A DNA stretch of 64,000 nt from Escherichia phage JLBYU32. The notes beneath the pieces were generated by a model, which had not been told where the DNA came from, did not search any database, and worked only from the letters and a program-made list of their open reading frames with translations. Position numbers and translations under genes: made by a program. Position 1 is the stretch's first letter; each line of letters begins with the position of its first letter. Location: the sequence record OK272490.1; one strand, written 5' to 3'. Positions 2,448 through 64,000 of the stretch are shown here, piece after piece.

Positions 2448-3557
2448 ATGACTACTAAAACTAAAGCACAGATTGACGCAGAAATTTACAAACTGGTTAA
2501 AGAAGGTAAGCTGACTAAAACAGCTATTGCACAGAAATTTAATACTTCAACCCGTTCAGTCGGTCGTGCTGTAGAGCGTCATGAAGCAACCTTAAAAGGT
2601 AAGAAAAAGGTAGCTTCTAAACCAGCTACGAAGACTTTGAAGCAAGTTGCTAAATCAGTTAAAAAGAAAGCTGACAAGCCAGTTAAAAAGGCTGTTAAAG
2701 AGGATGTACAGAAAGCTCCGGTAAATAAACTACACGAAGCTATGCAGAAAGATGACAAGATTGAGTACATGATTACTGGTGACTCTGTAATTATGACTTA
2801 CGGTTCAGAATCTGAAATTGTTGAGTCTACTCATCCGAACTATCAAGAGATTGTAGTTCATGTTGTTAAAGGTGAGTTTAAGAAAGCTTTCGAACTGATG
2901 AACATTCGTAAGTCTATCGAAAACTTCACTCAGGGAGCTATCACAATCAAAGGTGATAAGTTATTCTACGGTGCTGTTGAGATGCGCTCTACTCTGGTTG
3001 ACCGTATTCTTCACATGATGAAGACTGGTGACAAGGGCTTTGAACGTCTGGTAATGTTCTTCGAAAAACTGATGGAAAACCCATCCAAAGATTCTGTAGA
3101 ACAACTTTGGGGCTTCGTATCTCACCTTGATGTCGAAATTGATGAGGAAGGCTACATCATTGGTTGGAAGAAAGTCTCTACTCGTGAGGGTAAGCTGGTT
3201 GATTCTCACACCTACAAAGTGCCTAATGATTTGGGTAACATTGTAGAAATGCCACGTTGGATGGTTGATAATAACCGTAACGTGACTTGCTCTCAAGGTC
3301 TTCACGTTGGTGCTTGGGATTATGTTCGTTGCTTCTCAGGTGATACAATCCTGAAGGTTCGTGTCCATCCACGAGATGTTGTATCTGTTCCGACTGATTA
3401 CAATGATATGAAGATGCGTTCATCCCGTTATGAAGTTGCAGCAATCGTTGATAATCAACGTAAAGTGCTGGAAGCATGGAATGGTAAGACTGAAGCCTTG
3501 CATGTCATTGTTGGTACTGCTGGGGAACTCATCTCTCAACGCAAACGCGAAATCTAA
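2448..3557 (+). CDS. rIIB: rIIB-like protein
   Basis: C-terminal half (LFYGAVEMRSTLVDRIL ... CSQGLHV ... KVRVHPRDVVSVPTDYNDMKMR) resembles T4 rIIB as recalled; immediately downstream of rIIA. Confidence 0.75.
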   Translation: MTTKTKAQIDAEIYKLVKEGKLTKTAIAQKFNTSTRSVGRAVERHEATLKGKKKVASKPATKTLKQVAKSVKKKADKPVKKAVKEDVQKAPVNKLHEAMQKDDKIEYMITGDSVIMTYGSESEIVESTHPNYQEIVVHVVKGEFKKAFELMNIRKSIENFTQGAITIKGDKLFYGAVEMRSTLVDRILHMMKTGDKGFERLVMFFEKLMENPSKDSVEQLWGFVSHLDVEIDEEGYIIGWKKVSTREGKLVDSHTYKVPNDLGNIVEMPRWMVDNNRNVTCSQGLHVGAWDYVRCFSGDTILKVRVHPRDVVSVPTDYNDMKMRSSRYEVAAIVDNQRKVLEAWNGKTEALHVIVGTAGELISQRKREI

Positions 3558-3572
3558 TAAGTAATTTCTTAA

Positions 3573-3597
3573 AAGGCTGCTTCGGCGGCCTTTTTTA
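3573..3597 (+). terminator. rho-independent terminator
   Basis: GGCTGC-TTCG-GCGGCC hairpin followed by TTTTTTATTT. Confidence 0.7.
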
Positions 3598-3657
3598 TTT
3601 GTATTTTGTGCAGAGTGCTGTATAATTGTTGTCACGATAAACTAAACAGGAGAACCA

Positions 3658-4206
3658 ATGAAGAAGTTGATTCTAGGTTTGTGCTTAATGTTTACAGCAC
3701 ACTTATCTTATGCAGTTGACTGCCCAGAGCTATCAATTAGCCAAAAAGTAAACATGTTAAAAGCTTACCAGTATGGTGAGAATAATATGGGTAAAGGTTG
3801 GGGTATCACTCTAGCTGCTATAGCCTTACAAGAGTCAGAGTTAGGTCTGAAGGTAGAGAATAAAAAGACACACGATTATGGTATTTTCCAGAATCACTTG
3901 AAGACTGTTGTAAAGCGTAACAAAATTAGTCCTAATGTTGCTAAAAAGAAACTCTTAAAAGACTTTGACTATGCTGCGAAGGAGACTCACAAAGAGCTTG
4001 AGTTTTGGACAAAGGTGCATGGTCAACCAAAGTCAAAGAAGACTTTACAAAAAGTTTTAGCATCATATAATGCTGGGTATTCGTACAAAATCCCTAAAGC
4101 TAAGAAATACTCTCAAGATGTCTATAACAATATGAAAGTCATCGCTCAATGTGAATTTGCAACAAACATCTCTAAGGTAAATCATGAAAAAATTAAAAAA
4201 GTCTGA
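3658..4206 (+). CDS. secreted lytic transglycosylase-like protein (SLT domain) with signal peptide
   Basis: N-terminal signal peptide MKKLILGLCLMFTAHLSYA; QESELG...YGIFQ and SYNAGYSY resemble SLT catalytic/AYNAG motifs. Confidence 0.5.
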   Translation: MKKLILGLCLMFTAHLSYAVDCPELSISQKVNMLKAYQYGENNMGKGWGITLAAIALQESELGLKVENKKTHDYGIFQNHLKTVVKRNKISPNVAKKKLLKDFDYAAKETHKELEFWTKVHGQPKSKKTLQKVLASYNAGYSYKIPKAKKYSQDVYNNMKVIAQCEFATNISKVNHEKIKKV

Positions 4207-4879
4207 TGAAGTACTGTGTCATGCTTACGACTTACATCCTCATGAGTTAGGTCTTGATTCCTGTGTATGGACTCCAGAACAGTGTAGGGATTTTGAAGAC
4301 ACTGCAAGAGAAGTTGTATGTTCACTGGAAGAGTTCCACACATCAGAACCAATTGTGAACGTTGTGGACAAAGAGACTGGACAAACTATAGGTGTAAGGC
4401 GTGATAGTTTAGTCATAGTCAATAAAGACCTTGTAGAAAAAGGTAACCTCATCTTAGCAGATATTGATGGCGTTCTTACAAATTTTAATCACGAAGATTG
4501 CTCAACGGAGTTGACTGATGGGTCATTCTCACAGTACACTAATCTTCTTGATTCTGTAAGAGCAAAGCCAACATATGTTTTCAACATTATTGATGCAATT
4601 GCTAATCATGCTGCCGTTGGACTCTTGACAGCAAGAGGTGAATCTCAGAGAATACCTACTGAGATGTTTTTAAGGCACAATATAGAGCATGATTACTTGC
4701 TTTTTATGCGTGGTTTTGGAACTAACTCTATAAGTGCAGAAAGTTTGAAAGTGAGGATGATTCAGTCTTGCATTCTTCCTTACTTTAATATAGTATGCTT
4801 TATAGAAGATACAGAGAATAATGTTAAGAAGGTAAACAGAATCCTTCCACACATTAAAACTATGTTAGTTAAACATTGA
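4184..4879 (+). CDS. hypothetical protein, possible HAD-family phosphatase
   Basis: LILADIDGVLTNF resembles HAD motif I (DxDGxL); GLLTAR possible motif II; weak. Confidence 0.35.
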   Translation: MKKLKKSDEVLCHAYDLHPHELGLDSCVWTPEQCRDFEDTAREVVCSLEEFHTSEPIVNVVDKETGQTIGVRRDSLVIVNKDLVEKGNLILADIDGVLTNFNHEDCSTELTDGSFSQYTNLLDSVRAKPTYVFNIIDAIANHAAVGLLTARGESQRIPTEMFLRHNIEHDYLLFMRGFGTNSISAESLKVRMIQSCILPYFNIVCFIEDTENNVKKVNRILPHIKTMLVKH

Positions 4880-5355
4880 GAGAAGAACTTATGAACAATA
4901 TCATTACGGTAGCACTGGACGATACGGCAAACAAATCTGAAGTAGTTCGTAAAATGATTCAAGGCAACTTTGAAGGTAAAATTTTCCGTGCTGTTAATGT
5001 AAAAGCTGATGGTAGCATTCGTGAATACCGTGCACTGTTGAACGTTAAGAAGCACGTAAAAGGTGTTGGTTCAACGACTGCACACAAAGAAAACCTGATG
5101 ACTATCTATGATATGGGTAAGGCTTCAGAGTTAGGTGCTGAAGGTATCGTTAAAGAAGGTGCTCCGTATCGCTCTTTCAATCTGGAAACTACCCTTATGC
5201 TTTCCTTTACAAGTGGTTCCAAAACAATCACTTATCTCTTTACTGATGCTGCAACGGTATCTGCTATTAAGGATAGCACTGTCAAAGCTGGCGTAGTTGC
5301 TGCTGCAAAAGCTTCTTCGATGGCTGCAAATATCCTTGCTAAAGTCCTCGGTTAA
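4876..5355 (+). CDS. hypothetical protein
   Basis: ORF with overlapping start/stop (ATGA) with upstream gene; followed by terminator. Confidence 0.5.
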   Translation: MREELMNNIITVALDDTANKSEVVRKMIQGNFEGKIFRAVNVKADGSIREYRALLNVKKHVKGVGSTTAHKENLMTIYDMGKASELGAEGIVKEGAPYRSFNLETTLMLSFTSGSKTITYLFTDAATVSAIKDSTVKAGVVAAAKASSMAANILAKVLG

Positions 5356-5366
5356 GGTTAAGATAC

Positions 5367-5389
5367 AGGCTCCTTCGGGAGCCTTTTTC
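5367..5389 (+). terminator. rho-independent terminator
   Basis: AGGCTCC-TTCG-GGAGCCT hairpin followed by TTTTT. Confidence 0.75.
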
Positions 5390-5407
5390 ATTTCAGGAGA
5401 TTGTTAA

Positions 5408-5755
5408 ATGACATTTAAAGAGTTCTGTCAAGCTACTTTCATAGTTGTTTTCTTAGTTGGGGCAGGTGTCTGGGGAGGATACTCTTACAGAGACTACCAA
5501 GTTGCTGAAACTGAGCTAAACAATGAGAAGCTGATAAGTGTTGCTAAAGATGCTTATCAGGAAGGATTAGCTACACTGAGCACCAATTACAAAAATGATT
5601 TGAAAGATGTGCTTGCTAAGAATAAGCATACAAAAGAGGTACTAACATATGAAAAGACTAAGCCAGAGTTTTATAATGTTTGTGTTACTGATAATTATGT
5701 CAGGGTGTTCAACGAGCAAAGTGAACAGTACATTCAAAAACTCCCAAGTAAGTGA
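5408..5755 (+). CDS. putative i-spanin (Rz-like): N-terminal TM helix plus coiled-coil region
   Basis: hydrophobic segment FIVVFLVGAGVWGG near N-terminus; downstream lipoprotein ORF overlaps its 3' end in another frame. Confidence 0.35.
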   Translation: MTFKEFCQATFIVVFLVGAGVWGGYSYRDYQVAETELNNEKLISVAKDAYQEGLATLSTNYKNDLKDVLAKNKHTKEVLTYEKTKPEFYNVCVTDNYVRVFNEQSEQYIQKLPSK

Positions 5756-5918
5756 GAGTGACAAGTACACTCAAGAAGAGTCAAGATTCACTGTCAAAGG
5801 TAATACTGGTAGTGATGTGGCAGCAGCCCTTGAGTTTTATCGTGATGGTTTTTACCAGTGCACAATCAGAGCTAATAACCTTATTGATATGATTTTATTA
5901 GGAAATAAACAGCAATGA
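5649..5918 (+). CDS. putative o-spanin-like lipoprotein (Rz1-like), overlapping the preceding gene
   Basis: signal peptide with lipobox-like IMSGC (MKRLSQSFIMFVLLIIMSGCS); ORF starts inside and extends past the Rz-like ORF. Confidence 0.35.
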   Translation: MKRLSQSFIMFVLLIIMSGCSTSKVNSTFKNSQVSESDKYTQEESRFTVKGNTGSDVAAALEFYRDGFYQCTIRANNLIDMILLGNKQQ

Positions 5919-6184
5919 CAGAGAATGAAGATACTTTTTACGTAGAGGGTTACTTACTGTTACCACGACCAAAAGAAACTTATATGCGAATTGACTTCTT
6001 ACCAACCATTATGGATAATGTGATGTGTCATATCTTTATGCAAGGTGTCACAGCACAGCTTAAGCACGTTGGTAAAGAGTGCAAAATAAAGGTTGACACT
6101 CATCCAGAAATCAAAGAGAATCACTACACATGGTTCTTACCAGACTCTAAAGAAATCTTAGCAGTTCTTAAAACGAGGAAGTAA
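5915..6184 (+). CDS. hypothetical protein
   Basis: ORF, start overlaps upstream stop. Confidence 0.45.
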   Translation: MTENEDTFYVEGYLLLPRPKETYMRIDFLPTIMDNVMCHIFMQGVTAQLKHVGKECKIKVDTHPEIKENHYTWFLPDSKEILAVLKTRK

Positions 6185-6186
6185 CT

Positions 6187-6513
6187 ATGCAGATTAATGG
6201 AAGAGATTTTGTAGCCGTTTACTACGAGAAAGATAAAGAAGTTGGCGTAGCACAAGTATCTTATGGCAATGGTAAGTGGTTGTATGGGACAATCGCAGTA
6301 GTTGGAACAAGAAGTGATACAAAAACTTTTAAAGACTGTGTTGACCTTCTTGAAGAATCCATCCATAATCATTGGTGTCTGATATGGATGACTGACAACG
6401 AAGTGATAGAACGCTTCAAAAAGATTGGTATCAACATTGATAGCATTGAGCATGTTGACTTGTATGAGCTAACTGAGAAGGTAAACTATGAAAGTAATAC
6501 TAGCCAGAGATAA
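6187..6513 (+). CDS. hypothetical protein
   Basis: ORF in tightly packed + strand array. Confidence 0.5.
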   Translation: MQINGRDFVAVYYEKDKEVGVAQVSYGNGKWLYGTIAVVGTRSDTKTFKDCVDLLEESIHNHWCLIWMTDNEVIERFKKIGINIDSIEHVDLYELTEKVNYESNTSQR

Positions 6514-6721
6514 AAAGACCCGTAAGATTGTACGTTCAGCAGTATTCATAGGGAGAGATGAAGTTGTACCGTTTGCAGGGGAAGATGTGCTAACTTATAA
6601 GAAGGGTTTAAAACGTAAATTCAGTGACCGTTTACGTGGCTTCATCTCTGAACCATTAGAAGATTTCAAAAGTCGCTGTGGCGAAGGCATCATCATTCAA
6701 GAGGCAATTATTCATGGCTGA
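6488..6721 (+). CDS. hypothetical protein
   Basis: ORF. Confidence 0.4.
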   Translation: MKVILARDKKTRKIVRSAVFIGRDEVVPFAGEDVLTYKKGLKRKFSDRLRGFISEPLEDFKSRCGEGIIIQEAIIHG

Positions 6722-6914
6722 TTTCTGCAAAGATTGTGCTATCGAAATGTTCGGACGTGATACAGGTGACTTAAAAGGTCTCATCACTGAAGATGACTTT
6801 AAAGCTGGTTATGCAATGCCAGTAATCTGTGAAGGTTGTGGATGTATCTGGGTAGACCATGAAGGACAACGTGTAAAACCTTCAGAAGATAAAGAATCTT
6901 GGGAGAGATGTTAA
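6678..6914 (+). CDS. hypothetical Cys-rich (zinc-ribbon-like) protein
   Basis: CKDC ... CEGCGC cysteine pairs. Confidence 0.4.
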   Translation: MAKASSFKRQLFMADFCKDCAIEMFGRDTGDLKGLITEDDFKAGYAMPVICEGCGCIWVDHEGQRVKPSEDKESWERC

Positions 6915-7700
6915 ATGGGTATTGTAAAAATCATCAATGGGGATATCTTCTCCGCATTTGATAAAGGTAAGTTTGATATTATTGGTCACGGTTGCAACTG
7001 TATGAACTTAATGGGTGCGGGTATCGCTGACAAGATTTCTAAACTTTACCCAAAAGCATATGAGACCGATACAGAAGCTTATCTGTATGCAGGTGGTATA
7101 GGTCACAAACCCTGTGAAAATTTACTAGGAAATTTCTCTGTAGCACGTTTAGAACAAGGCCGTATAGCTAATCTTTACACTCAGCTTAAGACTGGTAAAG
7201 ATGCCCGATACAGTGCTTTAGAGTCATCTTTGAAACAGCTTAACAGATACTGTGAAGTTAATCAGTTGAAGAAAGTCGGGTTACCTATGATTGGTGCAGG
7301 TATCGGTGGGCTAGACCCTCAAGCCGTCACAGTTATCATTAATCAGGTGATGAAGAGTGTAGATGTGTATCTGTATGTTTATGAAGGAGAGATGTACCAC
7401 AAGTTACGCTCAGGTTGGAAGAACTACTGTGAACCAGAATACTTTGCAGGTGTAGTAACGTTCACAGATAATACAGTTACCCTCTTCAGACGAAGAAAAG
7501 GTAAGATACATCAAAGTAACCCTCCGGTTGAAAAGATGTCTCTGAGTAACGCTCTAGTTACCCACCTGTCGAAGAGCAATCACAGGATTGCAGTAACATT
7601 TGGTAGTGATGCAGACACTTATATCTATGCAAGAACTGATGAGGATATCGAGACAGTTTTCTCTTCTCCAGAAGTTATCTTCTTAGACGCAAAGAACTAA
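6915..7700 (+). CDS. macrodomain protein (TARG1/OARD1-like ADP-ribose processing domain) with C-terminal extension
   Basis: DIIGHGCNCMNLMGAGIADKI resembles TARG1 HCISEDCRMGAGIA signature; second glycine-rich loop PMIGAGIGGLDP. Confidence 0.5.
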   Translation: MGIVKIINGDIFSAFDKGKFDIIGHGCNCMNLMGAGIADKISKLYPKAYETDTEAYLYAGGIGHKPCENLLGNFSVARLEQGRIANLYTQLKTGKDARYSALESSLKQLNRYCEVNQLKKVGLPMIGAGIGGLDPQAVTVIINQVMKSVDVYLYVYEGEMYHKLRSGWKNYCEPEYFAGVVTFTDNTVTLFRRRKGKIHQSNPPVEKMSLSNALVTHLSKSNHRIAVTFGSDADTYIYARTDEDIETVFSSPEVIFLDAKN

Positions 7701-7965: not shown

Positions 7966-8129
7966 GGGAATGTCGCCATTTCTCACAAGGCTACCACATC
8001 TGGAAATAAAAGTCAACAGAAAAATTTGTAGCGGATTGAAAAATAATTCTTGATTGTAGTTCTGTTTTGTGGTAGTCGCGCGCACCCGTTTCATTACAAT
8101 TTTTGCAAAAAATATTTTTAAAATTCCTA

Positions 8130-8158
8130 TTGACTCTTTGAGTATAGTTATCTAATAT
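8130..8158 (+). promoter_or_regulatory. sigma70-like promoter TTGACT-17-TAATAT
   Basis: consensus -35/-10 with 17-bp spacer ~50 bp upstream of first small ORF (8209). Confidence 0.6.
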
Positions 8159-8208
8159 TTGCATCAGACGGGCAATCAAGCCCACTTCCTAAACTGGAGA
8201 TTCAAAAA

Positions 8209-8397
8209 ATGGCATCAAGAAAGATTAAAGTTGGCGATGAGGTTAACATCAAGCACGAATACTCTTACAAAATGCTAACTATACGCTCTTATAAGGTTTA
8301 TCAGGTGGAAGCTATCCACGAAGATAACACTTTTTCCTTAAAAGGTTATAGCGAACGTTTCCCTGCTGAACTCTTTGAGAAATGGAGTGCGAAATAA
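8209..8397 (+). CDS. hypothetical small protein
   Basis: preceded by conserved AAACTGGAGATTCAAAAAATG RBS/start module. Confidence 0.55.
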   Translation: MASRKIKVGDEVNIKHEYSYKMLTIRSYKVYQVEAIHEDNTFSLKGYSERFPAELFEKWSAK

Positions 8398-8603
8398 TGA
8401 TATACAGTCGCGAATTGATGGTTACAACTAACATTCACACAAAGGCAAAACGTTTTTACATGCAAATTTGTGGCGTATGGTCTAGAATATCAGAAGCTGA
8501 CTATTGCAACTATGTAGAAACGTCTATAAACTCTAATTGCTACCTTACAAGAAATACAAGAAAGTACATAAGACAGACAGCAATTTACTACTACGATAAA
8601 TAA
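8397..8603 (+). CDS. hypothetical small protein (start ATG overlapping upstream stop, TAATG)
   Basis: ORF MIYSRELMV...; ends exactly at cassette-associated TAA. Confidence 0.35.
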   Translation: MIYSRELMVTTNIHTKAKRFYMQICGVWSRISEADYCNYVETSINSNCYLTRNTRKYIRQTAIYYYDK

Positions 8604-18961: not shown

Positions 18962-19426
18962 TTACTTTGGATATACACTGTCAAGATAAATGTCAGCTTC
19001 CATTCTACGTCTGTTTTTCAGGCCGTTTGAAGTGACCTTCTTACCTTTGACTGTAACCTTGTTCCACCACTGCATAGCTTCTGCACAACCGACCTTATTA
19101 CCAGCATTGTGGCGCTTGATAAATGTAGAATCCTGCATAGCTGTGATACCGATGTTGTATGTTTCACTTACAAGTGCATCGAACTCGTTCTGAGAAGTTG
19201 GAACCTTGATAGCTTTATTCACTGCTGCAACGAACTTCTCAACATCTGCAAGAAGATACTGTTCAGCTTGTTCAGCAGTAATTTTCATACCCATCTTAAC
19301 AGGTTTTCCGTCAATACGGATTGTCCCATACCCGATTGTTGGGATTCCGGCAGAGTCTTCGTAAGCCTCTAACTTCAGACCTTCAAAGAACTTAATAGCC
19401 TCTAAACCTTTTCTTGAGAGTTGCAT
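18962..19426 (-). CDS. endolysin, T4-lysozyme-like (GH24 family)
   Basis: EGLKLEAYEDSAGIPTIGYG resembles T4 lysozyme catalytic N-terminus (E..D..T motif); 154 aa. Confidence 0.75.
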   Translation of the reverse strand: MQLSRKGLEAIKFFEGLKLEAYEDSAGIPTIGYGTIRIDGKPVKMGMKITAEQAEQYLLADVEKFVAAVNKAIKVPTSQNEFDALVSETYNIGITAMQDSTFIKRHNAGNKVGCAEAMQWWNKVTVKGKKVTSNGLKNRRRMEADIYLDSVYPK

Positions 19427-52192: not shown

Positions 52193-52564
52193 ATGAAGTG
52201 GCTGGAGGAAGCTTTTAAAAATAATATTGGTGCAATTGTAGTTGGTATTTTTAGTGTTATTGGGATGTATACCACCATGCAAGTTTCGGATGGTAAACAA
52301 GAAGTGTCTATCACAACAAAGTTACAGCAGCTAGATAATTATTCCAAAAGTAATTATTCAGCTATTCGTGATTTACAGTCTGATATGAGGCTGCTTCAGC
52401 TAGGGATGGAGAACCAGAAAGTCCAGTTAGAGAATGTTAAGGGAGAGAACGCAAAACTTACTAAGACTCTTGATAAATTTTCTGATAGTGTGAACAATCT
52501 GGCTCAATCAGTATCAGCCCTCCAAGCTATTACTGAAAAGAACACAAAGAATACTGAAAAATAA
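52193..52564 (+). CDS. hypothetical membrane-anchored coiled-coil protein
   Basis: N-terminal TM (IGAIVVGIFSVIGMY) then heptad-rich region. Confidence 0.4.
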   Translation: MKWLEEAFKNNIGAIVVGIFSVIGMYTTMQVSDGKQEVSITTKLQQLDNYSKSNYSAIRDLQSDMRLLQLGMENQKVQLENVKGENAKLTKTLDKFSDSVNNLAQSVSALQAITEKNTKNTEK

Positions 52565-59725: not shown

Positions 59726-59983
59726 TCACTCAATAACCGTGGTATGTGATTGACCATTTTTGCCATAGCTATAAGATGTTGTTGTTTGAGAGTTTGGACA
59801 TCTGACAACAACAATATCCCTGCTTATAGCGTCACCATTGAGTTTGTAGATTTTGCAGTCTTGCATCTCTGGAGGTAGGCTGTAAGAAGCATCTTTGTTT
59901 TCATAAGAAGGGTTGCAGCCAGCCAGAAAAATTACTCCAAGTGCAACCATTACTTTCACACAACTCTTAATCTTATTGTTCAC
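59726..59983 (-). CDS. small lipoprotein (signal peptide + lipobox LAGC)
   Basis: MNNKIKSCVKVMVALGVIFLAGC; mature part ~63 aa. Confidence 0.55.
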   Translation of the reverse strand: MNNKIKSCVKVMVALGVIFLAGCNPSYENKDASYSLPPEMQDCKIYKLNGDAISRDIVVVRCPNSQTTTSYSYGKNGQSHTTVIE

Positions 59984-61165: not shown

Positions 61166-61965
61166 TCAATACACTCGCAAGGTGTACCAGTTCTCTTATG
61201 AACTTCTCCGCATTTCTACGGAGTGTCGGACTATATCACGTAGTAGTAATACTACCGTTGCACTTGGGAATGGTCATTAGCTTACCACCCTACTCTACTC
61301 AGTTCATACATTAAGTATGCTTTTCGATAGTCTCTGAACGTTTCTCTGTTAGGAACTCTAAAATACTATTGTTTACTAAGGTATGCAATTGCTCTCTGCA
61401 TATTATCTACACTGTCTGAGAACAAGCCAAGACCTCTGTTACAGTTGTGGCACAACATCCCTCTCACCTTACCTGTTTTGTGGTCATGGTCAACAACAAG
61501 TTTAGCTTTATGTCTTGAGCCATTCATGATGAAACCTTCACCGCCACAGATTTGGCACTTATGGCCACATTTACTTAACAACTCTTCAACCTCTTCTCTT
61601 TCTAGGCCGTAAGTCCTTAAGTAGTAGTTCTTTACCCTTCCCTTTTCTCCACATGCAGAACTGCAATATGTCTGTCTTGCTGTTCTAGGTGTGAATTGGT
61701 TATTGCAGCTTGGACATATCTTTTCTATGACACGGTTTGCTGCTCTCCTGTCTACTTCAAGAACGCAGTTTCTGCAACGTTTTTGATTGTACTGGTATGG
61801 CTTAAACTCTTCGCCACATCTGGAACAAACTCTCTCTTTATAACCTACCATTGTCTCTCTCCCATTTCTACTATAGGAGTCCTAACAGAGACTTCGCTGC
61901 TGATTACCATATCTTTTAAGACTTAGGCTTCCAGCAATTCACAACGTTTTACATGCGCCACTGAC
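61160..61965 (-). mobile_element. intervening sequence in DNA polymerase gene (putative group I intron; boundaries approximate) carrying HNH endonuclease
   Basis: splits motif B between ...AKNGIYA and VLFGAGDEK...; contains HNH ORF on same strand. Confidence 0.55.
61366..61851 (-). CDS. HNH homing endonuclease
   Basis: multiple CxxC pairs and DHDHKTGKVRGMLCHNCNRGLG HNH motif. Confidence 0.8.
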   Translation of the reverse strand: MVGYKERVCSRCGEEFKPYQYNQKRCRNCVLEVDRRAANRVIEKICPSCNNQFTPRTARQTYCSSACGEKGRVKNYYLRTYGLEREEVEELLSKCGHKCQICGGEGFIMNGSRHKAKLVVDHDHKTGKVRGMLCHNCNRGLGLFSDSVDNMQRAIAYLSKQ

Positions 61966-64000
61966 GCATAGATACCATTCTTAGCCTTCTTACGGCCTTT
62001 AGTTATCTCGTGAAGAAGTTCCTCATCCTGTGTCTCTCTACAACGGATAATATCTTCTTCTTTGTTCAATGCAAAATAGATACTGTTAAGTGTATGCGCA
62101 TCAGTACCTGTGTAGACTTCATACAAATCATTATCAGCATCGTAACGACAATATTTATCAGCCTCTGGATTTAGGTACTTATCAAGATGCTTGCAGTAGT
62201 ATCGTCCATCATCCTGTTTAGTGAACTCTACAAACTCTTTACCTTCAGTTACCGCTTTGGTGAAGTCTTTATCACCCATAAAGTTACACAGTAAAACAAG
62301 CTGTGCAGAGTTCTGGTCAACTGAAACGATATTAGTCCCTTCCTCGCAAATCCACACCTCCCTCATAGGCGCTCCATAGACAGCAGCACCAGACGGCACG
62401 TTTACAATACCATATTGTGTCATACGCCCAGTTGAAGTACCAAACACCATTGCACCAGCACTAAGGCGACCATCTGGACGAATCTGGTTCAGCCAACCTT
62501 TCTCGTCATCCTTTGAGTTCTCAATAGTTCTGCGTCGGTGCATCAAAGTATAGTACTTAGCAATCTTCTGTCCAAGTTCACCTTCAATCGTATCATAAGA
62601 TGATTCAGTAAGTTTTGGTGAAGTACGGATTAAGCAAGGCTCAAGCAAATCTGTGTACTTCTTCACAGACCAGTTATGCTCAATGTACTGGACACCTTCA
62701 TGCTCAACATAGCTCAAACCACACCGCTCAACCATTTCCTGCCATTTAGGATGCTTGGTAATCATCTTTTTGTTGTCTTTGAAACGACAAACCTTAACAG
62801 GACGACCATCTGAGTCTTTCTTGTAGTTCCAGTCATCTGGAATCCAACCAACTGATTTCAAGTAGTCTTTAACAACTGCTACCTGAGTCATACGAGAAAC
62901 TTCAAACTCAATTGGTGTATATGGTGCATCAATCAATCCTGTGTAGCGACTTGACTCAAGTTCAAAGTGGTTAACAACGTGGCTGTTATAGTACTTCACA
63001 GTTTTGACTGTTTTTACTGGCTTCCAGTCTTTGCATTTCTTACCAATCTTTGCATTCAACTCATTGCAAATTGCACGAGCATCCTTCATTGCTACAAAGC
63101 CTTCCTTGTACTCTTCACCAGTTACAGAGTTGGTTGGTGTATAGCAATTTCTCTTTTCAATGTTAAAAATCTTTGTAGTTGGCTTACCAAATGGTTTGAT
63201 TTCATAAGTCTGCATCTCACCATTACGCACCTGCTGACGATACTTCGTCTTAGGGTACTTGGTAATTCTTTTCAGTCCATCTGCATGACCAAATGCTTCA
63301 ACATACTCATTCCAAGCTTTTGCAAACTCTTCTCCAGTGACTTTACCTTTGGTCTTAATAGTTGGAGGTAGATGTGGTTCAACCTCTGAAGCAAGCTCAT
63401 TAGTCAACTTGTCAAGTTCCTTTACATGGAACTCCATAAGCTCTTTATCAGCTTTCCAGCCATTAATAGCTTGTTGACTCATCCAGAAAGACGTCTCTTT
63501 AGCTCGCATGTAGGTTTCATAAGTGTCTATGCCACACTTCTTAAGCTTGAGATACTCGTTATCAAGTGCCCGTTTAGTTTTGGCGTTAATACGGATATCT
63601 TCTACAACACGAGTGAAGATTTCTGCATTCCACACACCCCAATGTTCAATCTCTGGTTTACGAACACCAACACGAGCACCCCATGCAGCCAAACCATGAG
63701 CACCTTTATAACCCTTTGGAGTTGGTCTATCCATCCACTGAACACGAGACTGGATAAGAGAATCCTGAAAGAAATTACTCCACGGTTTACACTTTGGATT
63801 ATCAAAGTTCCATAAATCAGGTGCAATGTGATTGAAAACCCACCAGTCATAACCGAGACCATTATGGATGCAAAGACGTTTTGCCTTTAACGCAAACTCA
63901 ATGCCTTCACGTAAGCCACCCTTAATGTACTTGGTATACTTGTGACCGAGGATAGGCTCATCTGTAAAGACCCATACAGGCGGCTCTTCATCGTCAGATT
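61923..64000 (-). CDS. DNA polymerase (family A), N-terminal segment; partial, runs off window end
   Basis: DQNSAQL (motif A-like) and ...RKKAKNGIYA (first half of motif B); frame open from 63734 to 64000. Confidence 0.7.
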   Translation of the reverse strand, partial: SDDEEPPVWVFTDEPILGHKYTKYIKGGLREGIEFALKAKRLCIHNGLGYDWWVFNHIAPDLWNFDNPKCKPWSNFFQDSLIQSRVQWMDRPTPKGYKGAHGLAAWGARVGVRKPEIEHWGVWNAEIFTRVVEDIRINAKTKRALDNEYLKLKKCGIDTYETYMRAKETSFWMSQQAINGWKADKELMEFHVKELDKLTNELASEVEPHLPPTIKTKGKVTGEEFAKAWNEYVEAFGHADGLKRITKYPKTKYRQQVRNGEMQTYEIKPFGKPTTKIFNIEKRNCYTPTNSVTGEEYKEGFVAMKDARAICNELNAKIGKKCKDWKPVKTVKTVKYYNSHVVNHFELESSRYTGLIDAPYTPIEFEVSRMTQVAVVKDYLKSVGWIPDDWNYKKDSDGRPVKVCRFKDNKKMITKHPKWQEMVERCGLSYVEHEGVQYIEHNWSVKKYTDLLEPCLIRTSPKLTESSYDTIEGELGQKIAKYYTLMHRRRTIENSKDDEKGWLNQIRPDGRLSAGAMVFGTSTGRMTQYGIVNVPSGAAVYGAPMREVWICEEGTNIVSVDQNSAQLVLLCNFMGDKDFTKAVTEGKEFVEFTKQDDGRYYCKHLDKYLNPEADKYCRYDADNDLYEVYTGTDAHTLNSIYFALNKEEDIIRCRETQDEELLHEITKGRKKAKNGIYASVAHVKRCELLEA

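Follow-up and report, generated by a model that had tools for sequence, protein, structure and literature searches.

A predicted spanin gene pair and a putative secreted transglycosylase of the Vs.1 family in Escherichia phage JLBYU32

Genes of the locus and their relatives

Positions 3658-5918 of Escherichia phage JLBYU32 were analyzed within a stretch of 64,000 nucleotides (OK272490.1), which is referred to here as the window and provides the coordinates used below. On its plus strand, the interval contains a gene for a secreted protein of 182 amino acids (aa) that resembles lytic transglycosylases and belongs to the family of phage T4 Vs.1 (3658-4206), followed by two overlapping genes that very probably encode a spanin pair, i.e. 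an inner-membrane i-spanin (5408-5755) and a lipoprotein, the o-spanin (5649-5918). An earlier sequence-only reading had combined these genes into a possible second lysis-related module distant from the endolysin gene. Our analysis suggests that the interval holds two independent features, a spanin pair and an orthologue of T4 vs.1, which were both catalogued before and do not form a shared module; we assign to this reading a probability of about 0.8.

JLBYU32 belongs to the genus Felixounavirus and is a Felix O1-like virulent myovirus. The DNA from 3000 to 7000 is 95-96% identical to dozens of genomes of Escherichia, Salmonella, and Shigella phages (approximately 95.6% for FSL SP-010), and 237 records cover at least 80% of this 4-kb query. 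The Felix O1 reference is offset by 76 bp with respect to the window, and the genes of the locus correspond to Felix O1 ORF3 to ORF7. Both features are known at the level of annotation, and the window does not depart from its hundreds of sequenced relatives; records of the spanin pair and of the homology to Vs.1 go back to the annotation of Felix O1, a comparison of T4-like genomes from 2006, and the spanin census of 2018.

The overlapping spanin genes

The i-spanin gene (348 nt) encodes 115 aa with the predicted topology of a type II inner-membrane protein. Hydropathy analysis revealed a hydrophobic segment at aa 6-24 (KD19 1.73), the only one in the protein, in agreement with the membrane-anchored product proposed earlier for this open reading frame (ORF); the periplasmic domain that follows contains Cys92. 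The o-spanin gene (270 nt, 89 aa) is preceded by a ribosome-binding site, GAGG, 9 nt upstream of its start, and shares 107 nt, read in a different frame, with the 3' end of the i-spanin gene. Its product is a predicted lipoprotein precursor with the lipobox MKRLSQSFIMFVLLIIMSG|C20-S21, in which the cysteine codon is located at 5706-5708 and the +2 residue is Ser and not Asp; a further cysteine is found at position 71. The lipoprotein ORF with an IMSGC lipobox, described previously as overlapping the membrane-protein gene in another frame, is indeed present.

The sequence-only reading had regarded this arrangement as the classic Rz/Rz1 overlap. The overlap itself was confirmed, but the architecture is 'overlapped' and not of the lambda-type 'embedded' kind. 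As in lambda, the system has two components, a type II inner-membrane protein and an outer-membrane lipoprotein encoded in another frame, with periplasmic cysteines. Lambda Rz1, however, is fully embedded in Rz and carries a penta-proline, whereas the window genes overlap only in part and the o-spanin is free of Pro; no sequence homology to the lambda proteins is claimed. The earlier remark that the lipoprotein is not proline-rich holds strictly, as not one of its 89 residues is Pro.

Comparison with PHROG families assigned the i-spanin to phrog_1152, labeled 'Rz-like spanin' (1.7e-41). The o-spanin matched phrog_4180 (1.4e-50), phrog_2425 (8.7e-10), and phrog_456, which also carries the label 'Rz-like spanin' (5.4e-5). 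Pfam and NCBIfam searches with the spanins and the intervening genes yielded sub-threshold noise only. GenBank relatives name the pair i-spanin and o-spanin, and the full 270-nt o-spanin ORF is present both in the curated Mijalis record (CPT) and as Felix O1 ORF7. A census of spanins listed Felix01/FO1a/UAB_phi87 and FSL_SP-010/FSL_SP-012 among the 'overlapped' two-component systems (Kongari et al. 2018, PMC6139136). Felix O1 ORF6/ORF7 and the genes of the census relatives FSL_SP-010/012 are the same genes as those of the window; their lengths of 348 and 270 nt, their overlap, and their lipobox agree, and the differences are allelic only.

Homologues of the pair were compared from Felixounavirus, Mooglevirus, Kolesnikvirus, a Proteus podophage of the genus Gorganvirus, and SU10-like podophages of the genus Suseptimavirus. 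In all homologues extracted from these five genera, a lipoprotein gene overlaps the 3' end of the gene for a type II membrane protein; this overlap comprises 137 nt in Kolesnikvirus. Cys92 is the single periplasmic cysteine of the i-spanin and is invariant, and the transmembrane domain (TMD) is conserved as well, together with a C-terminal motif P-x-F/Y-x-N-x-C-x-[TS]-[DE]-x-Y-x-x-x-F-N (alignment A4). Six o-spanin sequences from four genera all contain Cys20, the Ser-Thr after it, and Cys71, and their conserved C-terminal motif reads [LM]-[ED]-[FYW]-[YW]-[RQ]-x-x-[YF]-x-x-C-x-x-x-x-N-x-L-[IV]-D (alignment A5). Both frames of the overlap are open in other genera at approximately 79% DNA identity. 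Furthermore, DNA identity between the window and Mooglevirus amounts to 88-89% within the overlap and to 74-76% in the single-coding flanks (Fisher p = 0.002-0.004), and this higher conservation of the overlap matches the prediction of dual-frame selection.

The gene context of a homologous pair was also informative. Proteus phage RS10pmA carries the pair immediately downstream of genes for a holin (phrog_198, 4e-23), another small membrane protein, and an endolysin (phrog_465, 9e-51), an arrangement which is a textbook holin-endolysin-i-spanin-o-spanin lysis cassette. The missing proline residues provide no argument against a spanin, because the o-spanin family of T4 is likewise devoid of a proline-rich region (PMC6139136). 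Kolesnikvirus and SU10-like members of the same family as the window o-spanin contain several Pro in a variable linker; the absence of Pro is a lineage quirk of this linker, which rules out the lambda Rz1 family only and not spanins in general. Based on sequence comparisons, we are confident that 5408-5755 and 5649-5918 encode a spanin pair. The spanin call of the sequence-only reading thus stands, but no longer deserves the qualification 'tentative': the call is backed by the protein families, by an anatomy that is conserved, and by the location of homologues in a lysis cassette, and the pair had already been published and annotated as such. In the literature that could be searched, no experimental test of any member of this Felix-type spanin family was found.

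From anatomy, conservation, and family context, a mode of action can be proposed. The N-terminal TMD would hold the i-spanin in the inner membrane, and the o-spanin would be exported, cleaved by signal peptidase II, lipidated at Cys20, and sorted to the outer membrane because its residue +2 is Ser. The C-terminal domains of both proteins would then bind to each other across the periplasm, and a disulfide bond between Cys92 and Cys71 probably stabilizes the complex. During lysis, the putative holin encoded at 52193-52564 would act as the trigger, the endolysin encoded at 18962-19426 would remove the peptidoglycan, and the spanins would probably fuse both membranes.

The pair resembles PseT.3/PseT.2 of T4 in that it is located away from the holin and endolysin genes and near a polynucleotide kinase gene, and in that the o-spanin has no proline-rich region. 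This common neighborhood prompted a comparison of the two systems, and homology was rejected: BLASTP returned E-values of 15-18, and hhalign aligned nothing beyond the lipobox. The T4 genes are furthermore of the 'separated' type, and their o-spanin has two Cys and their i-spanin none, whereas the proteins of the window have one each.

Several observations concern relatives of the pair. A segment of 70 nt (5648-5717), comprising the start of the o-spanin gene and the end of the i-spanin gene, shows 79-86% DNA identity to spanin genes of SU10-like podophages; together with the common protein family, this match suggests an exchange of spanin pairs between myophages and podophages. In some relatives, the o-spanin gene was annotated from an internal start codon (loci L001, 4198-4419; L002, 4222-4419; L004, 3814-4008; L010, 2603-2776; L020, 2589-2762), which removes the signal peptide and the lipobox, and some of the products are named 'hypothetical'. 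PHROG families 4180 and 2425, both labeled 'unknown function', contain the o-spanin partners of phrog_1152 i-spanins (5649-5918 in the window; 2501-2776 in L009; 2004-2240 in L011).

The Vs.1-family protein

The product of the gene 3658-4206 begins with a signal-like segment, MKKLILGLCLMFTAHLSYA|VD, composed of the n-region MKK, an h-region of 13 residues, and the sequence S-Y-A|V, which fits the -3/-1 rule; the predicted signal peptide comprises aa 1-19 (nt 3658-3714). A signal-anchor-release or TMD anchor would require a longer segment. The motifs QESELG (aa 58-63, nt 3829-3846) and SYNAG (aa 136-140, nt 4063-4077), which had been pointed out in the sequence-only reading, are both contained in the protein, and the SLT-like assignment based on them proved right at the level of fold and motifs.

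All motifs of family-1 lytic transglycosylases were found, namely E59-S60 (Glu59 codon at 3832-3834), G75-x-x-Q78, S136-Y-N-A-G140, and Y151. A homology search retrieved Felix-type relatives and distant proteins with precomputed PF01464 matches; in their alignment (A1) the invariant or near-invariant columns are exactly these four motifs. Residues E59, Q78, Y137, G140, and Y151 are invariant in A1 and also in an alignment containing T4 Vs.1; S60, G75, and S136 are conserved to at least 90% in A1, and N138 is invariant in A1 and Ser in T4 Vs.1. A single-sequence search against the PDB gave no match. A profile search identified EtgA, a transglycosylase of type III secretion (7e-4), and goose-type lysozymes. 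The predicted fold is lysozyme-like (goose-type/Slt), and structural alignments gave 12-20% sequence identity to characterized transglycosylases. Invariant catalytic motifs and the profile matches to EtgA and goose-type lysozymes very probably identify the protein as a periplasmic lytic transglycosylase with Glu59 as catalytic acid, and it is likely that the enzyme is active.

The protein contains a pair of cysteines, Cys22 and Cys165, which is conserved in Ounavirinae, in the Vi1-like phage Det7, and in metagenomic relatives, and absent from the Vs.1 proteins of T4-like phages. The pair fits an oxidizing compartment and probably represents a lineage-specific periplasmic disulfide.

Comparison with T4 Vs.1 by BLASTP revealed what amounts to a full-length match, with 32% identity (E = 2e-16) over aa 1-155 of 182. 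The proteins have nearly the same length (182 versus 181 aa), and both start with signal-like sequences. T4 vs.1 is located at 61726-62271; in T4-like phages the gene lies between regB and vs, and the Felix O1 record names ORF3 'protein in vs-regB intergenic region'. Similarity of T4 Vs.1 to SLT proteins was pointed out in a comparison of T4-like genomes in 2006 (PMC1524935). The gene 3658-4206 is almost certainly an orthologue of T4 vs.1, as judged from the protein alignment; both proteins share the type of signal sequence and the catalytic motifs. They differ in that the Felix-type protein has Cys22-Cys165, and in that the gene is flanked by rIIB and a pseT-like gene versus regB and vs in T4.

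The family is widespread. With tblastn, 2,128 phage records were found to contain homologues, among them genomes of T4-like, Vi1-like, and KVP40-like phages. An exhaustive profile search yielded at least 1,265 clusters (50% identity) at E ≤1e-3, with 604 at ≤1e-10, nearly all comprising 160-200 aa. A hydrophobic N-terminus is present in 132 of 144 top representatives starting with Met (approximately 92%). Two distant members were traced, and both are phage-borne: one lies in a Felix-like syntenic block, the other on a contig encoding chimallin. In the literature that could be searched, no functional study of the vs.1 family was found. This large family, almost always equipped with a signal sequence and distributed over very different virulent phages of Gram-negative hosts, constitutes, together with several systematic annotation errors, the residual value of the locus.

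Two observations concern family members in other records. Vs.1-family genes are labeled 'RegB endoribonuclease' in Erwinia phage Tian (L013, 2998-3510) and Salmonella phage maane, which looks like a slip from the neighboring T4 gene that has spread through Kolesnikvirus records. Annotation pipelines could correct these 'RegB' labels, as well as the o-spanin starts and the unlabeled o-spanin families PHROG 4180 and 2425 mentioned above. The chimallin-encoding contig, ACBEZJ010000004.1 (214 kb), belongs to a Campylobacter coli assembly and carries a PhiKZ-type chimallin gene in addition to the Vs.1-family gene (8001-8582, locus L015); it is probably the genome of a nucleus-forming jumbo phage inside a bacterial assembly.

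If processed as predicted, the Vs.1-like enzyme would be exported by the Sec pathway, cleaved after Ala19, and released as a free protein into the periplasm, where the disulfide Cys22-Cys165 probably stabilizes it in the Felix-type lineage. As a family-1 enzyme of glycoside hydrolase family 23, it would cut the bonds between N-acetylmuramic acid and N-acetylglucosamine with Glu59 as the single catalytic acid. Secreted transglycosylases are known from other phages: Tgl of Kayvirus and Lys of Fletchervirus F352 act in lysis once the membrane is de-energized (PMC7150955; PMC7692668). These proteins resemble the Vs.1-like protein in having a cleavable signal peptide followed by a transglycosylase domain of approximately 170-190 aa, in Sec export, and in the location of their genes away from the lysis cassette; in Kayvirus, moreover, Tgl is found alongside a major endolysin, and its promoter is of the early type. 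Tgl belongs, however, to the IsaA/SceD group, outside the Vs.1 family, and acts in a Gram-positive host (Staphylococcus), whereas F352 Lys is the main endolysin of its phage, a Campylobacter Fletchervirus, and shows no detectable homology to Vs.1.

A second comparison concerns EtgA. IagB, IpgF, and VirB1 are, like EtgA, specialized transglycosylases of secretion systems. An enzyme dedicated to a secretion system (EtgA/VirB1 type) was considered and rejected: no secretion-system genes lie nearby, and the link to the EtgA sequence is weak. The similarity of the window protein to this group is no better than that to the housekeeping Slt/Mlt enzymes, and the equivalent of Asp60 of EtgA is not conserved in the Vs.1 family.

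Gene neighborhood, lysis genes, and alternative readings

Two genes separate the Vs.1-like gene from the spanin genes. The first (4184-4879, plus strand) encodes a member of the PseT-like polynucleotide kinase/phosphatase family with a HAD-type DxDG motif (phrog_3970, 6e-134; phrog_415, 1.4e-6), is named polynucleotide kinase in relatives, and is not a lysis gene. The second (4891-5355, plus strand, 154 aa; phrog_2267, 3.8e-50) has no assigned function; no significant Pfam match, no hydrophobic segment, and no membrane or secretion signal were found in its product. Terminator-like hairpins with a UUCG loop and a T-run are located on the plus strand after rIIB (3571-3594) and between the second intervening gene and the i-spanin gene (5367-5384), and both are given as terminators in the curated Mijalis record. 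The first hairpin and a conserved block, TGTATAAT (3619-3626, plus strand), upstream of the Vs.1-like gene are invariant in Mooglevirus relatives (alignment A2), and the second hairpin is invariant across genera (alignment A3). No second copy of the block TGTGCAG-N6-TGTATAAT was found within the 64-kb window. A T4-type late promoter, TATAAATA, was discarded as a candidate; it occurs once in 64 kb, which is below chance.

The surrounding genes are of the T4 accessory type. The compact block 2448-7700 combines rIIB, vs.1, the pseT-like gene, and a gene for a tk.4-like macro-domain protein (6915-7700, phrog_335), the homologues of which are dispersed in T4, and the spanin genes lie among them; together with rIIA, these genes make up the T4-type neighborhood of the locus. 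The gene order of the block recurs in a metagenomic relative (locus L017). We prefer to regard the locus as a group of T4-type accessory genes among which the spanins happen to lie; the spanin pair and the Vs.1-like gene share no more than this neighborhood.

The genes for the other lysis functions are located elsewhere. The earlier statement that a T4-lysozyme-like endolysin is encoded at 18962-19426 was corroborated by Pfam (PF00959 Phage_lysozyme, 6.6e-41) and PHROG (phrog_7 endolysin, 4.4e-58); the gene lies on the minus strand, and its product is soluble and has no signal sequence. A hydropathy scan of all non-nested ORFs revealed no membrane protein neighboring the Vs.1-like gene, the spanin genes, or the endolysin gene, as expected from the remark that no holin adjoins either locus. 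The only annotated holin candidate, 52193-52564 (plus strand, 123 aa), is situated downstream of the tail-fiber genes and encodes a protein with a single TMD at the N-terminus and, after it, a region resembling a coiled coil. Its size, the gene order, and the predicted TMD, and not an alignment, link it to the 'putative holin' of MW481326 (39938-40309). Hydropathy, PHROG, and Pfam gave no holin family support: the protein matches phrog_4038, which bears a label without function, and otherwise showed a sub-threshold DivIC match only. Holin assignment in the Felix O1-like group appears to be annotation by analogy. A scattered location of lysis genes has been recognized as a trait of Felix O1-like phages (PMC4319497; PMC3185647).

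Expression of Felix O1 genes has been examined by end-point reverse-transcription PCR (RT-PCR), which placed ORF3, ORF4, ORF6, and the lysin gene ORF35 in the 25 min class; the 10 min class contains ORF2 and ORF5 (PMC3185647). Literature searches for Felixounavirus transcriptomes gave no useful result. The method is crude, the 25 min class holds approximately 60 ORFs, and ORF7 was outside the test set (PMC3185647); these timings neither support nor refute a link between the two features.

Several points nevertheless weigh against the reading of two independent and correctly identified features. No promoter-like block was found between the hairpin 5367-5384 and the ATG of the i-spanin gene, so that co-transcription with the upstream genes by read-through is possible. 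The coiled coil which the sequence-only reading had assigned to the i-spanin, in addition to its confirmed membrane anchor, received weak support: a single-sequence AlphaFold2 model was all-helical with a predicted local distance difference test score of 51.8, and a crude count of heptad a/d occupancy gave 0.75 for aa 41-70. The Vs.1-like protein scored 18.8 bits (E = 1.2e-3) against Pfam SLT (PF01464), below the gathering threshold of 21.3, which T4 Vs.1 passes with 25.1 bits. F352 Lys, examined as a possible family member, was rejected as its signal peptide alone aligns, and the tested secreted endolysin shows no detectable homology. With regard to a lysis-accessory role, lysis fails in T4 e mutants that have an intact vs.1. 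Finally, the evidence is computational throughout, and the processing sites were deduced from sequence rules.

That the Vs.1-like enzyme and the spanin pair form one co-regulated and functionally coupled second lysis module, parallel to the endolysin locus or serving as its backup, is very unlikely. Such a module would be in line with the distance of 1.2 kb on the same strand, with possible read-through from the second hairpin into the i-spanin gene, with the RT-PCR class that ORF3 and ORF6 share with the lysin gene, and with a linkage within a few kb that is kept throughout Ounavirinae. Between the two features, however, lie two unrelated genes as well as a terminator-like hairpin that is strongly conserved, and in Kolesnikvirus there are six genes between them; in T4, vs.1 (62 kb) and the spanin genes (135 kb) lie 73 kb apart; podophages possess the spanin family without a Vs.1-like neighbor; and the RT-PCR class comprises far more ORFs than those of interest here. 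The proposal of a second lysis-related module was accordingly abandoned. Even less probable is that ORF 5649-5918 encodes an unrelated lipoprotein, e.g. a superinfection-exclusion factor, or is a chance ORF. The mature part without Pro, the label 'unknown function' of the best PHROG families, and GenBank records that give only a shortened ORF without signal peptide might be quoted in its favor, but five genera retain its overlap with a gene for a type II membrane protein, the lipobox cysteine and the second cysteine being invariant, the overlap is constrained in both frames, a homologue resides inside a holin-endolysin-spanin cassette, and the phrog_456 match, the census, and curated annotations agree on a spanin.

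The role of the Vs.1-like enzyme is less clear. Apparently, it is not the main endolysin of the phage, a possibility that was rejected in view of the separate canonical soluble endolysin at 18962-19426 and the missing homology to F352 Lys. Nor is Vs.1 a redundant endolysin, because T4 e mutants fail to lyse in spite of vs.1, which makes an accessory role plausible at most. By analogy with secreted phage transglycosylases, its most likely role, put forward here only tentatively, would be accessory, non-essential wall conditioning or auxiliary muralytic help to the main endolysin. A serious rival, although on the whole a somewhat unlikely one, is a role unrelated to lysis, such as remodeling of periplasmic peptidoglycan during infection (e.g. 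for cell enlargement under lysis inhibition), release or recycling of muropeptides, interference with superinfecting phages or with envelope-based defense, or a local opening of the wall for trans-envelope assembly, similar to that made by EtgA, VirB1, and IagB. The gene sits among T4-type accessory and not among lysis genes both here and in T4, EtgA from type III secretion is the closest relative by sequence with a solved structure, T4 requires gene e for lysis despite vs.1, and the family is conserved among large virulent phages of very different kinds, one of them a jumbo phage that encodes chimallin. On the other hand, none of the roles named is directly supported, and no functional study was found in the literature searched; the EtgA match is weak (E = 7e-4), with the general Slt/Mlt enzymes fitting the fold at least equally well; and the secreted phage transglycosylases for which tests were found in the literature act in lysis. 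It is improbable that the protein is inactive, i.e. a lysozyme-fold protein that binds peptidoglycan or regulates, such as a periplasmic decoy or a factor titrating an inhibitor. The sub-threshold SLT score, the low identity to characterized transglycosylases, and T4 genetics without a sign of endolysin redundancy point in this direction, but the catalytic Glu and the other family-1 motifs are invariant among members at approximately 30% identity, which argues for selection on catalysis, and x-E-S/T is present in 107 and Y-N/S-x-G in 136 of the 147 top representatives. Equally doubtful is a broader proposal, namely that the Vs.1 family consists of conserved early or middle Sec-secreted transglycosylases with which large virulent phages pre-condition the wall from the periplasm well before the holin triggers, and that the linkage of vs.1 and spanin genes in Ounavirinae is functional. 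If this were true, Vs.1 would enlarge peptidoglycan pores for assembly of spanins or other trans-envelope complexes, or would set the speed and completeness of the burst after arrival of the endolysin, and T4-like, Felix O1-like, Vi1-like, and chimallin-encoding jumbo phages would use such pre-conditioning.

Two additional observations were made outside the locus. A second predicted lipoprotein of 85 aa with the sequence MNNKIKSCVKVMVALGVIFLAG|C (phrog_902, a family labeled without function) is encoded on the minus strand at 59726-59983; no adjacent type II membrane partner was noticed, and the protein could be a superinfection-exclusion or receptor-masking lipoprotein. Furthermore, the records of Campylobacter phages A126 and A132 and of Staphylococcus phage SA1 contain sequences 91-100% identical to the Felix O1-type genes studied here, and Listeria phage LPML1 contains a more distant homologue (47% identity); these matches are likely to result from contamination, chimeric assembly, or mislabeling.

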